NCBI GenBank assembly: GCA_041650835.1
Contig: JBAZKL010000004.1
Location: 294,900 to 358,899, forward strand
Length of the DNA stretch: 64,000 nucleotides
Source of the DNA: Candidatus Omnitrophota bacterium
GTDB taxonomy: Bacteria; Omnitrophota; Gorgyraeia; Gygaellales; Profunditerraquicolaceae
Direction of reading: 5' to 3'
Every line of letters begins with the position of its first letter. The stretch's first letter is position 1. Positions 6,648-55,789 of this stretch are shown here, one piece after another. A program made the position numbers and the translations under genes. Under the pieces are notes generated by a model, which searched no databases, was not told where the DNA came from, and saw only the letters and a program-made list of their open reading frames with translations.

Positions 6648-9600
6648 TTAAAGGAACTCTTGTGACTCTAAACTGTCTAAATAGATCAAAAGCCCTGTAA
6701 CCTTTAAATGCGGATAGATATCTTTGACAATAGAGATATATTCCGTCATTTGTTCATTGTATTCATCATGCGCCTCAGCTGAACTCTTATAATCGATGAT
6801 CCAGGCGTCTTGTGCTGTTACCACCAGGCGGTCAAGCCTCCTGGTTACGCCAAAACGGTCAACGATCTCTTTCTCCTGATACACCTGACCCTCCCGCACG
6901 TTAAAATAACGCTCATAGCGCTCATCCGCTAATAACGCTCCCACAACGCCGGAATAGGAAGCTACGTCGGTAAAAGCGGGAAAACGCTTCCTCGCTTTCA
7001 AGAGAGCGCCGTTCAGCAGCACCTGTTTTTCGGCGCCGGCGCAGTTGCCGATACAGGAAAGGATATAATGAAGCACTTCACCCCGGAAGATCTCGGCCCG
7101 GGAAGCGAGAGTATGCTCGTCAATGAACTCATCCTTTAAAAGATGGATCCAGTCTTTATATGCCGCAGGAAGGATCTCCCGCGCAGGCGGCAGCTGCGGC
7201 AGGGAAGATCCTCGCGTATCGCCGGCTGATCCATATTCGCGGTCGTTTTCCGGTAAAAGAAGGCCGGCAATATTCAAACCCGTTTCTCCTTGAGGAGAGA
7301 TAAAAATGTATAGCTCATCCTTCGGGCGGGTCGTGGCAACATAGATACTGTTAAGCTCGTCGATGAACGCCTTGACGTATTCATTGCGGTAGATACGGGC
7401 CAGCGACGGAGAAAAATCCGCGTACCGTTTCTTCAGATACAACAATTTCAGGCCCTCTGACGCCTCAACGATGACCTCTTGTTCTGCTTTTACGTTCATT
7501 TCAAGGAAAGGCAGGATAACTACGGGAAATTCCAACCCTTTCGATTTATGGATCGTCAGTATCTTTATTGAATCGGTATGGGCGACATTAACGTATAAAT
7601 CATCCAGAGGTGCTTGAGCAAAGAAATCCAGGAATACCTGGATACTCGGTTTCTTGTCTTCTGCCTCTTTGATCAATTCTAAGAAGCGCATAAAGAAGCC
7701 CTGATAATCCGGAAACTCCTCCAAAACGGCGAAGCCGCGGTAAATACTGACGACTAATTCATAGAGCGGGACAAACCCCACACTTTTAAAGAAATCTTCG
7801 AAAAGACGGTCCCAGGCCTCAGGGAAACGCCCTTTGAATTCCCGGTAGAGATACGAGCACCCGGATGAGCTCGTGTGCAGATTGAAAATGAAATCCTGGA
7901 TTTCTTCCGATGAGATCCCCGATGCCCGGGAAAAGATCTCTCCCAGTATAAACGAAGCAAACGATAAATTGTCAATGGGGGAATTCAGGAACATAAGAAA
8001 ACTGACCAACTCTTTGATATAGGCGTTAGCCTTGATATTAAGCGTTTTCTCCGATTCGACGGGGATATTCTCTTCCAGGAGCCAGGAGGTCAAAAGCTCG
8101 ACCTGTTCATTTTTTCTTACGATAAAAGCGATATCCCGCAGCGGGACCCCTCTGGCGGCTAACTTCCTGACAAGGCCGAGCAGCGCCGGCTTTAAAGATC
8201 CCTCGCGCTCTTGCTTAGACCTATATTCAATAAACTCCGTTTTTACAAAACCACCGGGTTTATTCTTGAGGGACTCCTGAAAGGACGACAGGAAGATACC
8301 GGTAATTTCTTCGGCGTCGTTATCGTCTAACGCTACAGCTCCTTTTTTCTCAACTGCCAACTCCTTCAGGAACCGCCTGAGGTTGTCTTGAGAAAAAAGC
8401 ATATTGTTAAAAGCAACGATCTCCCGGCGGCTGCGGTAATTAGTCGTCAGCGACTCTTCGATCAAATTAAAATCCCTCAGGCGTTCTTTCTGGGAATCGA
8501 TCAATGACACTTCCCCTCCCCGGAAACGGTAGATCGCCTGTTTTTTATCTCCCACATAAAACAGCGAGCCTCCGCAGGAGAGCGCCTCCTGGATCATGAT
8601 AAAAAGGTTTTCCCATTGCAGGCGGCTGGTATCCTGGAATTCATCAAGCAAATAATGTTTGAAGCGGGTAGCCAGGCGGTAGTAAAGTTCGGGCAGGCCG
8701 AGATTTTTCTCATCAAAAAGGCTGCGCGCCTCTTTATTCAGGGCTTCCAGGAACAATATATCGTCCTTACTGGAGGCTTGCTTTAAATCTTCGAGCACGC
8801 GCTTAAAAATAGCGACGTAATAATTAAGCATGAAAACGGATTCCAACTCACAGAGCCCGCTCAGGCTGTCCTTAAGCCTGCGCCAGAGCAGGCGCGGCTC
8901 ATCCGGGATATCATGCCCCTTATTAACAGGGAGCTCTTCGCGTTTAAAGAAATCAGAAACTTTTTCAATCGAAAAATGATCATCCCGGCGTTCCAAGAAT
9001 GCGCTCAAACTATTCTTAAACGAGGCATGCGTTCCCTCGGGCAGGCGCTCTAAGAGCTTACGCAACAGCTTGACGATCTCTTCTTTCTTGGAAAACACCT
9101 GCTCCGCGGTCGCGCTTGAAAGAAAGAAGCTTCCCGCGTAACGGTTACTCTTTGAAAATAACGCGGTAATGATCCCTAAAATATACTGTTTCGGGAACCA
9201 CCCCGCCTTGTTTTCTATATAAATATATTGGGTAAGGAAATTACTGAAAAGTTCAAGGACCTGCGCATCCGTTGAAGCGCGGTCGATCAACTTATCAAGG
9301 CTGAAGGCGAGATATTCACGGTAATCTTTTTCTGTCTTAAACCTCGCGGAAAGGTCAAGCTTGAAAGCGCACCCGCTGAGGATAGCGTTAATAAAGCTGT
9401 CAATGGTCTGGACCTGGAAGAAATTATAGTTTCGCAGCAGCGCATCCATGATCAAATGCGCTTTTTGGCGCGCGCTTGCCTCATCAATATGCAACGCGCC
9501 CAGTAATAAAGCTTTTTCTTGAGGATGAGTAAAGACATCCAACGCGATCCTTTTTAAAAGTTCCAGGATCCGCTCTTTCATTTCAAGAGCGGCCTTATTG

Positions 9601-12151: not shown

Positions 12152-12190
12152 AAATAGTATTATGTAAGACTACAGGTATAATTTTAAAGT

Positions 12191-12307
12191 ATAAAGTTTA
12201 AATAACAAAGGAAGGATCAAGCTTAAAGGTTTCTCCTGCAGGCAGTTAATTTTAAGATTTATTCTTTAGCCTTTAAGCTTCCTTTGCTATTTGATCTTTA
12301 AACTTTA
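12191..12307. repeat. Nested-palindrome intergenic element, copy D
   Basis: ATAAAGTTTAAATAACAAAGGAAG ... CTTCCTTTGCTATTTGATCTTTAAACTTTAT. The outer arms ATAAAGTTTAAA / TTTAAACTTTAT are perfect inverted repeats. The middle arms are AAAGGAAG / CTTCCTTT. The central segment contains CCTGCAGGCAG. It lies between the argS stop and the recJ start. Confidence 0.6.
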
Positions 12308-25807: not shown

Positions 25808-25931
25808 ATTGACAGGTCAGCGAATAAATAAATTGCATGTGAAATAAACTAAAACAGAAAAAGTCTAAAGGTAACCCCCTCGACAGAGCTCGGGATGAAT
25901 GAACCATAAGCGCCTGAGGCATGGTTCATTC

Positions 25932-26058
25932 AAAGTCTAAAGAACAAAGGAAGATGAAAGTCTCAAGGTTTAATTTTAAAATTTCCTACCTGCCGGCAGG
26001 CAGGAACCTTTAATCTTTGAATTTCCTTTAATATTTGCTCTTGAGCCTTTAAACTTTA
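25932..26058. repeat. Nested-palindrome intergenic element, copy B
   Basis: CAAAGTCTAAAGAACAAAGGAAG ... CCTGCCGGCAGGCAGG ... ATTTCCTTTAAT ... TTTAAACTTTAT. The outer arm overlaps the rpmE stop codon. Confidence 0.6.
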
Positions 26059-40798: not shown

Positions 40799-42876
<2,078 letters not shown>

Positions 42877-43061
42877 ATTAACGTTATATCAGTATCCCAA
42901 TTAAATAATGAGGTTGCGGTTACGGCTATGTTTGGGTTTCGGATTCATCGCTAAAATACAAACAAGCACAATGTTCTATACTTGAGTTTTCTTAGGGAAA
43001 TAAGTATCTGAAATTATTGCCGTTAGGATTATATGGAGAGGATGCGTAAACCTTCTCTAGC

Positions 43062-52670: not shown

Positions 52671-53111
52671 TTATCTCGGTTTCCAGCCCCACGGATCAGC
52701 GCTTTGCCGCAGCTCCTTCTCTTTCGTTTCAATAATACTCTTTAAATCAGGCGATAACGATTTCAACAGCTCTTTTTCTTCCTTTTTCAACTCGGAAAAA
52801 ACCCGGTGCACCTGTTTATAAAATCCAGTACCGCATTCATCTGCCGTAAGCTTCTCTCCAGGTCCCGGCGCAAAAGGAGAATCTTCAGGAATAGCTCCGG
52901 GGGCGAACATAAGCTGCGCCTGCAACATCACCGCGTCTTTAAGTTTAATTTCGCCTCTCTCAGCTGCCGCCTGGACCATATCATACATGCTGGAATATTT
53001 CTCTTCAACCGCGGGTATATCGACAGAAACACCCGTTGAAGAAGACTCTGAGTAACAAATACCGGATAGAGCCAAGATAAAGAATACAATCTCGCAAAAT
53101 GTAATTCGCAT
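52671..53111 (-). CDS. Small secreted protein of unknown function (146 aa from the Met with an SD sequence)
   Basis: Signal peptide MRITFCEIVFFILALSGICYS. AAAAGAGGG lies 4 nt upstream of the ATG at 53111. The ORF track's upstream extension to 53210 runs through the structured element. Confidence 0.6.
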   Translation of the reverse strand: MRITFCEIVFFILALSGICYSESSSTGVSVDIPAVEEKYSSMYDMVQAAAERGEIKLKDAVMLQAQLMFAPGAIPEDSPFAPGPGEKLTADECGTGFYKQVHRVFSELKKEEKELLKSLSPDLKSIIETKEKELRQSADPWGWKPR

Positions 53112-53126
53112 AAACCCTCTTTTATT

Positions 53127-53378
53127 GATCAACTTAATGAACCTGTTGCTTTTCTCGCTCAGGTTGATTTTCCGCCACAAAACATGGCGGACGGCAAAGA
53201 TCTTTCGCATTTCGGTGGCTGCTGAACTCGTCGCATTTGCTCTATCAAATGCTCCTTAAACAACATCGCCATCCCAAGATTGCCCAGCTCTCGCTGGGCC
53301 TTGGGATTCCCTCAATGCTCAAGCTGCTTTGCCTAAAATCAACATTCGCTCGAAAACCAGCAGGTTCATTTAAACCAA
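53127..53378 (-). ncRNA. Candidate structured RNA, copy 1. It is a ~250-nt multi-helix element that forms the 5' leader of the secreted-protein gene.
   Basis: The reverse complement aligns over about 255 nt (~75-80% identity) with 54401-54660. It has the hairpins GCCCAG-CGAGAG-CTGGGC, GCATTTG...CAAATGC and TCCGCC-ATGTTTTGT-GGCGGA. A long-range helix GGCAAAG/CTTTGCC is also present. All of these covary with the other copy. Confidence 0.55.
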
Positions 53379-53386
53379 AACACTTC

Positions 53387-54126
53387 TTATTTCTTAACGT
53401 TCTTTTTCTTTAAATCTTCCTGCATTATTATTTCATTTTCTAAAACTTCTACCCCTCTAAGATAATTATCCTTCTTAGCCAATTTCAATAATTCTTTTAG
53501 AAAATAAATATAATCTTTACCCTTTTCTTTTCTCAACTCATTAGAATATAAATTAAACTTTGCACATACATTCAATGCTGACCCTACTTTTTCTTCCTGC
53601 GTTTTAATAATTTGCTCCTCTTTTTTATCAGGAATCTCCAAATATAAACAAAATGCCTTATACCCATAACTAAAGGCTTTTCCCCATATACCATAAACGG
53701 CATAACGTTCAGCCCTTGATTGATAATATCCTGCCTGGCGGAACATTGATTCTAATCTTACTTCTTGCTCCGATGCTTTTATTTCATTATCAAGAATTTC
53801 TTCAATTTTCTTAACATCTTGCCCTTGATTAATTTTACCAACAAAATTTTGGTCTATGTCAACATTTTGTATATCTTCACTAACACCTACTTTCGTATTT
53901 AATATAATAATATCTCTAATTGTTGAACCCTTGGGCTTCTTAATATTAGAAGAATTGTTTTCGGTGTTTTCTTGTTTTTGTCTATTCCCTGAGAAAAATC
54001 GTCCGGCCCCTGCTCGCTCTTTGCAGCAGTATTATCAGTAAAATCGGTATTTTTCATATCAACCTTAAAACCCGTATCTTGATCCAACGATAAATTCCCC
54101 TTAATTCTTGAATTTTCTGCTTTCAA
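53387..54126 (-). pseudogene. Disrupted gene of unknown function in the AT-rich insert (the two ORFs 54126-53899 and 54031-53387 lie in frames offset by 1)
   Basis: The 119-aa ORF frame stays open upstream to a stop at 54032-54034 and contains no start codon there. The upstream 75-aa ORF (TTG start) ends at 53899. Joining them with a single-base shift near the A/T homopolymers at 53960-54010 would give a protein of roughly 240 aa. Confidence 0.4.
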
Positions 54127-54147
54127 ATCAAACCCAGTTGTTTTATT

Positions 54148-54276
54148 TTACACTTCTCTCTTACTAATTATCCCAAAGGAAACCCACCAAACAATAATTT
54201 GAATTACTAAAAGCAAGCTAAATATTCGAAACCAAATAGGTCCTTCAAACAATGCCTTAAATAAATCTGACCACAT
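54148..54276 (-). CDS. 42-aa hydrophobic peptide (single TM helix)
   Basis: MWSDLFKALFEGPIWFRIFSLLLVIQIIVWWVSFGIISKREV. A strong SD sequence AAAGAGG lies 6 nt upstream of the ATG. It is below the 60-aa ORF cutoff, so it is absent from the ORF track. Confidence 0.5.
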   Translation of the reverse strand: MWSDLFKALFEGPIWFRIFSLLLVIQIIVWWVSFGIISKREV

Positions 54277-54400
54277 CTTATACCTCTTTAATCCCTACTA
54301 TTGAGTTAATTCTTATTAAACGTTGCGGTTATTATTGTAGCGCATATTTTCCTACATCACCAAAATTTATTTAACCCCAACCGCTCACAAGTAACTTGAG

Positions 54401-54660
54401 TTGGTTTAAAAATGAATCTGACGGTTTTTCGAGCGCATCACGATTTTAGCCAATGGAGCTTTGGCATTGAGGGTATCCCAGGTCAGCCGAGAGGCTGACA
54501 ATTCTGGGACGGCGATGCTGTTTGAGTCCTATTTGCTAGAGCAAATAGGACGAGTTCAGCAGCCGCCGAAATGCCAAAGATCATTGGCGTGCCGCCTAAT
54601 TATAAATATAGCGCGGCAAAATCGTGCTTAAGCGAGAAAAACCGCCAGATTCATTAGATC
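54401..54660 (+). ncRNA. Candidate structured RNA, copy 2 (paralogue of 53127-53378 in inverted orientation)
   Basis: Hairpins GTCAGC-CGAGAG-GCTGAC, CTATTTGC-TAGA-GCAAATAG and GCCGC-(17 nt)-GCGGC. Long-range helix GCCAATGG/TCATTGGC. It abuts the ruvB stop codon. Confidence 0.5.
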
Positions 54661-54664
54661 TAAG

Positions 54665-55789
54665 CTAAAACAGCTCTTCTTGTTTCTCTTTATTGAATTT
54701 TATTCCGAAATGTTCGAACGCCAGCTTCGTGGCTACCCTTCCGCGGGAGGTGCGCTTTAAATAGCCGGCCTTGAGCAGGTACGGCTCGACGGTATCGACA
54801 ATGGTGTCGACTTCTTCATTGAGGCTTGCCGCCAAGGATTCAGCGCCTACCGGCCCGCCGTCAAAAGATTCCAGGATCAGCCTTAAAACCCGGCGGTCCA
54901 GGTCATCTAAGCCCGCTTTATCGATACCCAATTCGTCAAGGGTCTTTGCGGCGACAACCTGGTCGATCTTGGCGATATTGGAGACCTGCGCGTAATCCCT
55001 GATGCGACGCAGGAGCCGGTTGGCGATACGGGGAGTTCCCCGCGCGCGCCTGCCGATCTCGCATGCCGCCTCATCATCGATCTCAATACTTAAGATCTTG
55101 GCGGAACGCCGTACCACCTCTGCTAAATCCTCGACCCCGTAGAAATCAAGATGGTAAAATATGCCGAAGCGGCTGCGCAGCGGCGCGGATAATAAGCCTG
55201 AACGCGTGGTTGCCCCGACAAGGGTAAAAGGCTTGAGCCTGAACTTGATCGTCTTGGCATACGGCCCTTTATCAATAACGAAATCGATCTGAAAATCCTC
55301 CATCGCCGGATACAGGAATTCCTCCACCACTTTGGAAAGCCGGTGTATCTCATCTATAAAAAGGATGTCGCCTTTTTCTAAATTAGTCAAAATACCGATA
55401 AGGTCTCCGGCGCGTTCAATAGCGGGCCCTGAGGTCGCGGTGACCTTGGAATGCATTTCATGGGCGATGATATGCGCTAAACAGGTCTTGCCCAGGCCGG
55501 GCGGCCCGGAAAATAACGTATGCTCGAGAGGCTCTTTACGCTGTTTGGCGGCAGTCAAGCAGACTTTCAGGTTGTTGACCAGGTCTTTTTGCCCGATGAA
55601 TTCCGAGAGCTTATTGGGGCGAAGCGAAAGGTTCAGGACTACATCCTCTTCAGTCTCCTGCGCCTCATTCAACGGGAACGGTAATGGATCCTCAGCGCGC
55701 GCGGGGAGGGATGCGGCATCGGTATAATCATACTCCGATCCGTCGAAGGAACTTTCACTGCTAATTTTGCGCTTCTTCTGTCCTGCCAT
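54665..55789 (-). CDS. ruvB: Holliday junction branch-migration ATPase RuvB, with an acidic N-terminal extension
   Basis: 374 aa. Walker A is GPPGLGKT. The sensor and arginine-finger regions are present. The C-terminal winged helix is present. No ruvA is adjacent. Confidence 0.9.
   Translation of the reverse strand: MAGQKKRKISSESSFDGSEYDYTDAASLPARAEDPLPFPLNEAQETEEDVVLNLSLRPNKLSEFIGQKDLVNNLKVCLTAAKQRKEPLEHTLFSGPPGLGKTCLAHIIAHEMHSKVTATSGPAIERAGDLIGILTNLEKGDILFIDEIHRLSKVVEEFLYPAMEDFQIDFVIDKGPYAKTIKFRLKPFTLVGATTRSGLLSAPLRSRFGIFYHLDFYGVEDLAEVVRRSAKILSIEIDDEAACEIGRRARGTPRIANRLLRRIRDYAQVSNIAKIDQVVAAKTLDELGIDKAGLDDLDRRVLRLILESFDGGPVGAESLAASLNEEVDTIVDTVEPYLLKAGYLKRTSRGRVATKLAFEHFGIKFNKEKQEELF

Follow-up and report, generated by a model that had tools for sequence, protein, structure and literature searches.

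A repeat family of Candidatus Omnitrophota with a strand-specific fold may mark the edges of exchangeable accessory-gene cassettes

Integron cassettes are small, often single-gene, AT-rich units that are bounded by imperfect palindromes (attC), occur in either orientation, and include 'empty' members lacking an ORF. For attC sites both structure and one particular strand matter, and the folding strand is typically antisense to the neighboring genes. The slots described here, which are bounded by a repeat that we call family A, resemble integron cassettes in all of these respects. The cassettes of sedentary chromosomal integrons carry small defence and toxin-antitoxin genes. However, attC sites span 57-141 nt and have conserved ends (R boxes, GTTRRRY) around a variable center, whereas family A spans 215-285 nt and shows the reverse pattern. 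Inspection of the alignments revealed that neither A nor its partner family, B, ends in GTTRRRY, as would R''/R' sites (RYYYAAC…GTTRRRY). No cassette arrays, adjacent intI or attI, or adjoining tyrosine recombinase were present in the loci examined. Unlike integrons, A slots occur singly and are scattered among housekeeping genes, and their two boundary elements differ from each other and fold on opposite strands.

Several other systems share part of this arrangement. The REP/BIME/REPIN (RAYT), ERIC, and Correia families are, like A, dispersed multi-copy intergenic palindromes located just after stop codons, and they likewise form lineage-specific hairpins that are presumed to be mobilised in trans, with compensatory changes reported in some. 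Yet REP units measure 20-40 nt and ERIC and Correia elements are simple hairpins of 100-160 nt, whereas A is a branched fold with an invariant core. To our knowledge, none of these families brackets gene cassettes as a heterologous pair. In composite MITEs (Tn3-derived TIMEs and integron mobilisation units), ~250-bp elements with terminal inverted repeats (TIRs) can flank cargo in inverted orientation, as at our locus, but these have conserved termini and target-site duplications. Family A shows no target-site duplication and many of its copies have unrelated termini. It is usually paired not with a second A but with B, which differs from it and lies in direct DNA orientation. The pdif (XerC/XerD) modules of Acinetobacter plasmids are accessory modules, including toxin-antitoxin modules, that are bounded by short recombination sites, occur in both orientations, and move between replicons through a host recombinase supplied in trans. 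Their sites are 28-bp duplexes on plasmids, in contrast to A and B, which are large, strand-specifically structured, and chromosomal. At tRNA and tmRNA islands, variable, horizontally acquired DNA begins exactly at a conserved structured RNA-like element, partial copies of which can occur at the far end, as with A. Those islands lie at the 3' end of a tRNA gene and have their own integrase and direct repeats, whereas the cargo of A slots lies at the 5' end of A, there is no integrase, and the fragments are inverted. We also considered and rejected an IS200/IS605 end or a TnpB/IscB omega RNA: no tnpB or iscB ORF adjoins the element, the IS605-orfB and HEARO models of Rfam gave no match, and A and B fold on opposite strands.

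The locus under study lies in a 64-kb stretch of a Candidatus Omnitrophota assembly (contig JBAZKL010000004.1 of GCA_041650835.1), which was analysed whole and is referred to as the window. A sequence-only reading of the window had described two inverted, diverged copies of an element, and both a repeat finder and blastn bore this out at 79% identity. The repeat finder reported inverted arms at 53191-53304/54477-54590 (114 nt, 78%) and at 53302-53356/54426-54480 (55 nt, 82%), while blastn aligned the reverse complement of copy 1 with copy 2 at 78.7% identity over 197 nt (E 1.6e-39). The copies are indeed ~250 nt each, although nhmmer shifted their previously proposed ends. Neither blastn nor nhmmer found a third family-A copy within the 64-kb window. 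The features of the locus are:

53128..53381, minus strand: family-A copy 1 (nhmmer E 8.7e-66; sense is the minus strand)
53136..53171, minus strand: 3' arm of the closing stem P1 of copy 1 (inverted repeat I3)
53335..53370, minus strand: 5' arm of P1 of copy 1, pairing with 53136-53171 (inverted repeat I3, 36 nt, 81%; MFE structure)
53382..54399, minus strand: AT-rich cargo segment (composition profile, ORF list, contig gene calls)
53387-53746, minus strand: cargo ORF of 119 aa
53899-54126, minus strand: cargo ORF of 75 aa
54148-54276, minus strand: cargo ORF of 42 aa, hydrophobic
54400..54663, plus strand: family-A copy 2 (nhmmer with the family HMM, E 2.9e-66; sense is the plus strand)
54411..54447, plus strand: 5' arm of P1 of copy 2 (inverted repeat I4, blastn self-matches, MFE structure)
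54618..54655, plus strand: 3' arm of P1 of copy 2 (AAAATCGTGCTTAAGCGAGAAAAACCGCCAGATTCATT), pairing with 54411-54447 (repeat finder, blastn, MFE structure)

Both copies fold far more stably than expected from their composition. The minimum free energy of the sense strand was -111.9 kcal/mol for copy 1 (z -9.0) and -129.3 kcal/mol for copy 2 (z -11.8), and in neither case was any of 200 shuffles equally stable. The helices listed by the sequence-only reading were all found where it had placed them, and the MFE structures recover them in both copies. Its list did not include the ~35-bp closing stem of each copy (I3 and I4), whose 5' and 3' arms are each copy's own terminal inverted repeats. A GC hairpin with an AT-rich loop, also described there, is present in both copies but proved optional in the family as a whole, most copies having GGCGTTAAAAAATCGAC at that position. 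Since the antisense strands of the window copies fold very stably too (z -8.1 and -13.2), the strand cannot be assigned from two copies, and it is the family-wide comparison that assigns it.

The search for further copies that had been proposed with the sequence-only reading returned 171 family-A copies on 166 loci, by nhmmer profiles and MAFFT alignments, which may have missed weakly similar copies. Every named genome among them is an Omnitrophota MAG or SAG. One exact pattern retrieved 46 loci in 24 Omnitrophota MAGs or SAGs, with up to six loci per genome, and an independent second pattern retrieved more than 119 further metagenome stretches with family A. The element is highly conserved across these 24 or more genomes, which come from different habitats. 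Neither the whole window nor 18 related loci (122 kb) gave a hit at the gathering threshold to any family of Rfam 15, among them riboswitches, ribozymes, OLE/GOLLD/ROOL/HEARO, and IS605-orfB omega RNAs, in agreement with the earlier suggestion of an undescribed structured family. A permissive Rfam search (E up to 10) of 52900-54900 gave only two chance-level matches, both outside the core. There was no A match among viral contigs (two exact patterns) or in phage and plasmid collections (distant blastn), and our search of the literature on structured RNAs or palindromic intergenic repeats of Omnitrophota found no relevant paper. Family A, a repeat of Candidatus Omnitrophota that folds strand-specifically, had not been catalogued before.

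Each member of family A consists of a closing stem, a core, and peripheral hairpins. The core (…UUUUAGCCAAUGGAGCUUGAGCAUUGAGGG.AUCCC / GGGAUGGCGAUGCUGUUUGAG / CGAGUUCAGCAGCCACCGAAAUGCGAAAGAUCAUUGGCG…) is ~100 nt long and almost invariant, the peripheral hairpins covary freely, and the ~35-bp closing stem is free in sequence but required to pair, with conserved tandem G.A mismatches. The UAGA loop of hairpin 2 is conserved. Compensatory pairing had been taken as the signature of selection on structure from two copies alone, which were insufficient for that claim, but 119 distinct family members establish it. Among these, 36 of 52 pairs had changed on both sides in a compensatory manner, and 95.3% of cells were paired as compared with 84.2% in shuffles. 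Covariation among homologues, the lack of which had been named beforehand as a refutation, exceeded chance: the score of 0.337 was reached by none of 500 shuffles (0.138) and fell to 0.085 or less when partners were slid. In the P1 helix (helix 1), all 15 pairs covary across the family. These results support selection for pairing and, with it, a genuine structured nucleic-acid family.

The comparison also settled the strand, for which the sequence-only reading had chosen correctly. In 131 of 132 copies the sense fold had the lower free energy, the mean difference being 14 kcal/mol. G-U cells far exceed A-C cells in the alignment, and GNRA loops are confined to the sense strand (27, versus none of the complementary type).

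Inverted arms of ~35 nt occur in every copy of A. The commonest terminus is AATGAAYCTG, but many copies have unrelated yet still complementary termini (e.g., ACGAAACTAATGG, GCATATAGGTATTT, and CTGAATAAACAGTA), and the alignment shows the termini to be less conserved than the interior. No target-site duplication, TA duplication included, was found at the 95 copies with mapped stem ends or at the composite units. Beyond the stem, information content is about zero, with no promoter, upstream motif, or conserved element at a fixed distance. An intrinsic terminator was among the rejected candidates, as no U-tract directly follows the stem on either strand (mean T in the first 8 nt was 1.9 sense and 3.0 antisense), and position +1 after the stem is A in 55% of copies. 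A conserved small ORF inside A, of the type I toxin kind, was likewise rejected: the ATG at the 5' end is missing from some copies, and the reading frame differs between copies because of indels in hairpin 2 and the stem.

We examined the genes beside the copies, a survey that had also been proposed, and they turned out to be unrelated housekeeping genes, including purD, folD, queA, and ruvB. Only syntenic housekeeping genes recur, and no recurrent transposase, reverse transcriptase, or TnpB lies next to A. For the 102 copies with both neighbors called, using crude longest-ORF gene calls, A was antisense to a co-directional pair in 66 cases, sense in 19, between divergent genes in 12, and between convergent genes in five. 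The 3' end of A lies a median of 33 nt from a stop codon (quartiles 5-65), with looser spacing on the 5' side. Some positions are kept across species: A follows folD in L062, L097, and L136, and 5-6 genomes carry it between purM and purD, where two genomes have it in opposite orientations. The two flanks also differ in composition. The 5' side is the more AT-rich, at 41.1% GC versus 44.8% on the 3' side (p 1e-5), and a drop of more than six GC points relative to the locus mean was seen in 17 of the 79 5' flanks versus none of the 79 3' flanks.

Upstream of A and in the same orientation lies a second structured family, B, an arrangement seen for 60 of 67 B hits. Covariation was found at 30 of the 34 pairs of B, which folds on the strand opposite to A in 52 of 56 copies, such that both folds are on the strand reading outward from the slot between them. 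A stem-base motif with G.A is common to A and B. The gap between B and A is bimodal: 35 gaps span only 3-100 nt, and about 22 others span 394-2153 nt and have 27-39% GC. A motif scan confirmed this arrangement. Isolated inverted fragments of the P1 3' arm type of A occur at the outer ends of B (L029, L148, L056/L062, L140, L109, and L028). For about 60% of the A copies no B could be detected. Loci were sampled by the presence of A, and the frequencies of B and of cargo apply to A-bearing loci.

The window matches the B-slot-A layout with a second, inverted A in the place of B. The 5' ends of both copies face the cargo, which lies between them and has 27-37% GC versus 48% for the window. This 1.0-kb segment of ~30% GC had gone unremarked in the sequence-only reading and is the key to the context of the two copies. 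On the other side, the 3' end of copy 1 is 16 nt from the ATG (53111) of a secreted-protein gene, and that of copy 2 is 3 nt from the ruvB stop codon. Pfam gave no match for the window cargo ORFs or for the secreted-protein gene.

Comparison of the interval from ruvB to the secreted-protein gene among related loci revealed turnover. It reads A(-)/cargo/A in the window, B-A with an empty slot in L167, B/A(-)/cargo/B(-)/A-remnant in L029, and A(-)/mini-B in L168-170. The orthologous slot of L029 holds a different ORF of 245 aa with an RNHIVH motif. The core of copy 2 is 94.5% identical to the orthologous copy in L029, a close relative. The A(+) copy that precedes this secreted-protein gene in L167 is the ortholog of copy 1. 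Ahead of the same gene, L029 keeps only the last 39 nt of copy 1 (7804-7842), corresponding to the 3' arm of P1 at 53136-53171. Elsewhere, the site between folD and metF that carries A is empty in L062 and filled, with B, in L097 and L136. In L026, L148, and L155, whose flanks are 86-94% alike, homology breaks at the outer end of B and ~6 nt inside the 5' end of A. An empty site orthologous to other CAZPNW01 loci (L002, L030, and L047) was not present in this 64 kb. The search for such a site in the window turned up a third palindromic repeat family (family C).

The cargo of other slots included matches to HEC-09/NYN (1.8e-60), PDC-S32/AbiJ (2e-116), and PDC-S05/ORF6N (3e-58), as well as Mrr_cat/PDC-M58A, SIR2-like, HNH/PtuB-like, and a MvaI/BcnI fragment. 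About half of the cargo ORFs have no known domain. No transposase was detected by Pfam and PADLOC among 22 slot cargos.

What might this arrangement be? We favor, on evenly balanced judgement, the view that 53128-54663 of the window is one unit of a dispersed, Omnitrophota-specific cassette system in which A is a boundary or docking element. The view is built on the observed layout, cargo content, turnover, structure, strand, and orientation bias. A marks one edge of a slot and B, folding on the opposite strand, the other, with the inverted second A substituting for B in the window. The slot is empty or holds 0.4-2.2 kb of AT-rich accessory DNA, often a single gene of defence or toxin type, and close relatives hold different cargo at the same chromosomal site. 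As the docking site of a non-autonomous system, A would have its core recognised by a trans-acting factor, most plausibly one resembling a recombinase or transposase and acting on a folded single strand. The same factor would presumably also read the G.A-containing stem base common to A and B, and cassettes would be gained, lost, and swapped exactly at the 5' edge of A. Because no recombinase, transposase, or reverse transcriptase was found in or beside any unit, mobilisation in trans is something that we purely infer.

A more specific version of this view is possible, though we put it forward tentatively. A and B would be the two recognition ends of a hitherto undescribed, dispersed cassette-exchange system without an integron platform. 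A trans-acting Omnitrophota enzyme would read large folded single-stranded modules, one per strand and both outward, and would insert, excise, and swap single-gene defence cassettes at dozens of fixed docking sites. Against a system of this kind, we know of no characterised single-strand recombination system (integron attC, IS200/IS605) whose two ends fold on opposite strands.

Two further features weigh against a cassette boundary. With ~60% of A copies lacking B, A may act independently of cassettes. In addition, the strand-specific fold, GNRA loops, and tandem G.A mismatches are no less compatible with a transcribed RNA than with single-stranded DNA. The foremost alternative, which we regard as conceivable if somewhat improbable, is that A is a multi-copy, independently transcribed noncoding RNA gene, trans-acting or protein-scaffolding, with foreign genes settling in its 5' AT-rich region. 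Cassettes might then gather at the 5' side indirectly, for instance in a permissive AT-rich promoter region. An invariant core, a covarying periphery, and a stem of free sequence are the classic signature of a functional RNA, to which the near-universal one-strand fold, the tetraloops confined to the sense strand, and the positions kept across species at the folD and purM-purD sites can be added. Most copies are antisense to their neighbors, as expected of a separate transcription unit. Against this, A lacks a promoter conserved at a fixed upstream distance and a U-tract terminator, and variable DNA abuts exactly the first bases of the closing stem. The partnership with B across the slot and the common stem-base motif would be unexpected for an ordinary RNA gene. 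Orientation also flips at one and the same locus, and truncated copies persist, such as that in L029.

It is unlikely, in our view, that A and B act at the RNA level as insulators or 3'-end modules on transcripts leaving the slot or the neighboring promoter region. They would stop, process, or stabilise these transcripts, so that the convergent host gene is protected from antisense transcription and cargo mRNAs acquire a folded 3' terminus. This would account for both folds being on the outward-reading strand and for the 3' end of A being set tightly by the stop codon of the convergent gene while its 5' spacing is looser. Moreover, either cargo orientation places the sense fold of A or B downstream of a cargo ORF, as with copy 1 after the 119-aa ORF and the fold after the AbiJ-like gene in L160. 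Without a U-tract on either strand, however, A does not qualify as a canonical intrinsic terminator. Nor would a generic terminator need an invariant core of 100 nt, and cassette turnover exactly at the edge of A would go unexplained.

Still less probable is an ordinary MITE or a pair of decaying transposon inverted repeats, with covariation arising from gene conversion between arms or from quasipalindrome correction rather than from structural selection. Family A is certainly multi-copy and intergenic, clusters with other palindromic repeats (B, and family C in the window), often breaks assemblies, and has ~35-nt terminal inverted repeats in each copy, while the isolated arm fragments at the far end of some units resemble a second TIR. 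Template switching of the quasipalindrome-correction type can produce seemingly compensatory changes in DNA hairpins even when no selection acts, but it would not keep G.A mismatches or the G-U asymmetry. DNA homogenisation in general does not produce a strand asymmetry of 131 in 132 copies or conserved non-Watson-Crick G.A pairs. Conservation is lowest at the termini and highest in the interior, the opposite of what a MITE shows. Target-site duplications are absent, and the element is highly conserved in 24 or more genomes of different habitats. The sequence-only reading had already argued against mere decay of terminal inverted repeats, and its argument holds at the family level, where conservation of the core far exceeds that of the termini and the conserved tandem G.A mismatches stay 'unrepaired' throughout.

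Scarcely credible by now is that reading's own model, in which copy 1 acts as a riboswitch or other leader that regulates cell-envelope genes in cis (secreted-protein gene, DUF2905, SpoIID, queA) and copy 2 is an orphan: copy 1 does end just ahead of the secreted-protein ATG in sense orientation, and its ortholog in L167 is arranged alike, but just 19 of 102 copies are sense to co-directional flanking genes, the genes downstream are functionally unrelated, L029 has the gene with only 39 nt of the element, the element is inverted at this locus in L168-170, a terminator that could serve as expression platform is absent, and copy 2, ending 3 nt from ruvB, shows the majority arrangement of the family.

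If A is indeed the boundary of a cassette system, then Omnitrophota, a phylum of mostly ultra-small, uncultivated bacteria, would possess, throughout the phylum, a way to store small genes of defence and toxin type and to exchange them at many chromosomal docking sites marked by large structured elements. It would be a functional analogue of integron cassettes made from different parts, without an array or an adjacent integrase. Whatever the mechanism, A (and B) constitute a well-supported new structured family with hundreds of members that is fit for an Rfam-style model. Because about half of the cargo ORFs lack a known domain, models of A and B offer a practical handle on novel defence genes in these genomes. 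The A and B repeats also account for recurrent contig breaks in Omnitrophota assemblies, and 12 of the 46 loci with the exact pattern were cut at contig ends.

The repeat finder resolved the two window copies of family A, a structured intergenic repeat (copy 1, 53128-53381, minus strand; copy 2, 54400-54663, plus strand), into the following arms:

53191-53304 with 54477-54590: inverted arms, 114 nt, 78% identity
53302-53356 with 54426-54480: inverted arms, 55 nt, 82% identity
53136-53171 with 53335-53370: copy 1's own terminal inverted repeats, ~36 nt
54411-54430 with 54636-54655: copy 2's own terminal inverted repeats

The description of this region in the sequence-only reading matched the sequence on re-reading, and every helix it named was present in the folds of both copies; the terminal inverted repeats within each copy were absent from its list. 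By blastn, the reverse complement of copy 1 matched copy 2 at 78.7% identity over 197 nt (E 1.6e-39), and no third copy was found across the 64-kb window. Both copies folded into the same branched rod, with sense-strand energies of -111.9 (copy 1) and -129.3 kcal/mol (copy 2) and z of -9.0 and -11.8; the antisense strands were likewise very stable (z -8.1 and -13.2). The 1.0-kb segment between the copies has 27-37% GC, compared with a window average of 48%. Copy 2 has its 3' end 3 nt from the ruvB stop, the family's typical placement beside a convergent gene. Beside copy 1, the mechanical ORF list placed a 179-aa ORF at 52671-53210 (minus strand) with its start within the copy. Called as a gene on the source contig, the same secreted-protein ORF has 146 aa, and a Shine-Dalgarno sequence indicates an ATG at 53111, just beyond copy 1. 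Its N-terminus resembles a signal peptide, and it had no Pfam match.

Family A had no match in Rfam 15 at gathering or permissive thresholds, in agreement with the earlier failure to place the element in a known RNA family, and our literature search found no paper describing it. Searching GTDB species-representative genomes for an exact 22-nt string taken from the most conserved part of A identified 46 loci, with at most six matches per genome and 12 copies truncated by a contig end. In NCBI almost all of them are named Candidatus Omnitrophota, as is the MAG to which NCBI annotation assigns the window RuvB; among the loci named 'uncultured Planctomycetales' is CAZPNW01, whose sequence matches the window at ~90% identity across 6 kb. 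A second, independent pattern of 25 nt, drawn from the 5' core, found more than 119 stretches with A among the matches listed for JGI and ENA metagenome contigs. The search for further copies that had been proposed recovered, by profile, 171 copies of about 210-285 nt over 166 fetched loci (L-numbers below). Viral contigs, phage genomes and plasmids gave no match, and as far as sampled the family is restricted to one phylum.

Across copies, the core and junction sequence is nearly invariant, the peripheral hairpins vary freely in sequence with pairing kept, and the closing stem of ~35 bp is free in sequence with complementarity kept, as expected of a functional fold. Among 119 distinct copies, 95.3% of cells formed a standard pair (84.2% in shuffles) and 36 of 52 pairs had changed on both sides (704 cells). 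The covariation score was 0.337, against 0.138 in shuffles, none of 500 reaching the observed value, and at most 0.085 when partners were slid by 1-3 columns as a control. The compensatory changes first read from the two window copies therefore hold family-wide. In 131 of 132 copies the sense strand folded more stably, with a mean advantage of 14 kcal/mol; it is the strand that had been guessed (copy 2 plus, copy 1 minus). A-C cells were far fewer than G-U cells, and hairpin-1 tetraloops were GNRA in 27 of 59 cases and of the complementary type in none. Family A is thus a new structured family whose strand is unambiguous. At the base of the stem, tandem G.A mismatches are conserved (5'-UUUC GA GC GA… opposite …GA GC GA GAAA-3') and never 'repaired' to Watson-Crick pairs, which speaks against simple homogenisation of a palindrome in DNA. 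These structural and strand features are compatible with RNA or single-stranded DNA alike; GCGAAGC, a frequent module in A, is also well known in DNA as a stable mini-hairpin.

Several peripheral features varied among copies. In 36 of 140 hairpin-1 terminal loops, a sizeable minority, hairpin 1 was swapped for a fixed alternative module, CCCGGUGGAGCGAAGCGACAAAACCGGG, which includes GCGAAGC (e.g., L047, L030, L028, L038), and both types occur together in single genomes. The optional 3'-hairpin site tolerates insertions like a variable peripheral domain: some copies (L029:6460-6555, L005, L007, L006, L167:7567-7660) hold an extra ~90-nt module containing a perfect palindrome, GTTTAAATCTTTAAAAAGATTTAAAC, plus a CCCGAAGGGCCGGCA…TTGCCGGGG stem, and L046 and L023 have other insertions in A. 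Sense-strand flanks directly outside the closing stem are A-rich (-1 is A in 68% and +1 in 55% of 108 mapped copies), beyond what stem extension can explain; this could point to a preference in targeting or to a single-stranded tail with a function.

Placement and orientation of A are strongly biased. By crude longest-ORF gene calls, the 102 copies with a neighbour on both sides were distributed as follows:

Antisense within a co-directional gene pair: 66 copies
Sense within a co-directional gene pair: 19 copies
Between divergent genes: 12 copies
Between convergent genes: 5 copies

The median distance from the 3' end of A to a convergent gene's stop codon was 33 nt. The 800 nt 5' of A averaged 41.1% GC versus 44.8% on the 3' side (p 1e-5); 17 of the 79 5' flanks, and none on the 3' side, showed a drop in GC of more than 6 points relative to the locus mean, and at ~28 loci an ORF of 30-35% GC begins beside the 5' end.

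Family A also has a heterologous partner, family B, a ~170-nt structured repeat with ends TTAGCGGGTCCTGTC…CCACCCGCTAA found upstream of many A copies. In loci collected through A, 60 of 67 B matches lay upstream in the same DNA orientation. The gap between them, here called the slot, is bimodal, at 3-100 nt in 35 cases and 394-2153 nt in ~22, and a motif scan agreed; the long gaps hold DNA of 27-39% GC. B had no Rfam match, covaries strongly (30 of 34 pairs) and shares with A the G.A-containing stem-base motif; about one-sixth of B elements carry an inverted fragment of the A 3' arm at their outer end. B is more stable on the strand opposite A's (52 of 56 copies), so A and B each fold on the strand reading outward from the slot. 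One main rival explanation takes A and B as insulators that would work at the RNA level, on transcripts that exit the slot. B is absent from the window, where a second, inverted A occupies its position in the same topology. The invariant core of B reads …GAGCGGGCACGGTTGCCC…CCACGCTGGGGAAAA…CTGCGAGAAACA… (L020, L022, L018, L040 and ~55 others, e.g., L167:7154-7315), and a short 'mini-B' with the ends alone occurs in L136, L155 and L042.

The cargo, AT-rich accessory DNA in the slot, included ORFs matching or resembling the following:

HEC-09/NYN (1.8e-60)
PDC-S32/AbiJ (2e-116)
PDC-S05/ORF6N (3e-58), plus a second PDC-S05 match
Mrr_cat/PDC-M58A
SIR2-like protein
HNH/PtuB-like protein
MvaI/BcnI fragment
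DUF5677
Minimal nucleotidyltransferase (by eye)
Protein with a HEPN-like RNHIVH motif (by eye)

About half of slot ORFs had no match, nor did the window's three short cargo ORFs in Pfam, and none of the slot ORFs was recognised as a transposase, integrase or reverse transcriptase. Homologous cargo occurs in either orientation: L120:482-1000 (plus) and L148:1429-1944 (minus) encode homologous proteins of 171-172 aa with a CCCFHCWP motif and no assigned function, in B-A slots and oppositely oriented relative to A. On the reverse strand of L097, the cargo brings a near-consensus sigma-70-like promoter (TTGACT-17-TATAAA), located between the 5' end of A (3933) and an NYN/HEC-09 gene (3637-3026). 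A short hairpin follows, then a terminator-like stem and T-tract just ahead of the NYN ATG; this region may encode a small regulatory RNA, or else attenuate the candidate defence gene.

Between close relatives, the differences fall precisely at the slot. Flanks in L026, L148 and L155 are 86-94% identical around three different cargos, and homology ends at the B outer end and ~6 nt within the A 5' end. At the folD-A-metF site, L062 has no cargo, while L097 and L136 carry both cargo and B. The interval from ruvB to the secreted-protein gene was arranged as follows:

Window (RuvB 100%): A(-) / cargo' / A(+)
L029 (RuvB 94% to window): B / A(-) / cargo / B(-) / A-remnant
L167 (RuvB 93%): B-A, no cargo
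L168-170 (RuvB 82%): A(-) / mini-B

There is thus a variable accessory-gene slot, one edge of which coincides with the first bases of A. We infer that A would mark where cassettes of a non-autonomous system dock or end, and that it may be acted on in trans while folded as a single strand. The other main rival holds that A is a mere multi-copy RNA gene beside which foreign DNA accumulates.

In broad terms, A can be grouped with structured intergenic repeats or elements resembling recombination sites. The nearest systems in function are pdif modules and integron cassettes, above all those chromosomal cassettes that store small defence and toxin genes; REP/BIME, ERIC, Correia-type repeats and MITEs are nearest in form. 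Family A appears to fit the definition of none of these. Its ends are variable and its centre invariant, whereas attC and MITEs show the reverse; it forms no arrays, has no adjacent integrase, far exceeds REP in size and branching, and showed no target-site duplication. There is a substantial chance that A represents a new cassette system.

The neighbours of A are unrelated housekeeping genes (e.g., purD, folD, queA, ruvB and tgt), and at the purM-purD site A is oriented oppositely in two genomes. Neither a conserved promoter upstream of A nor, on either strand, a U-tract after its stem was found. In L029, all that precedes the same secreted-protein gene is the final 39 nt of copy 1, implying that an intact element is not needed there. 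The proposal that copy 1 is a cis-regulatory leader or riboswitch was rejected on these neighbours, the orientation flip, the L029 remnant and the excess of antisense over sense copies.

A third family of palindromic intergenic repeats, family C, occurs at three places in the window:

12179-12306: family C repeat
25866-26056: family C repeat, with CCTGCCGGCAGGCAGG
42742-42889: family C repeat

The genome therefore carries several structured intergenic repeat families. Family C is AAAG/CTTT-rich, with arms flanking a CCTGC…GCAGG centre; further copies lie in L002 and L030, and in L032 a B loop contains an insertion of the family C central motif.
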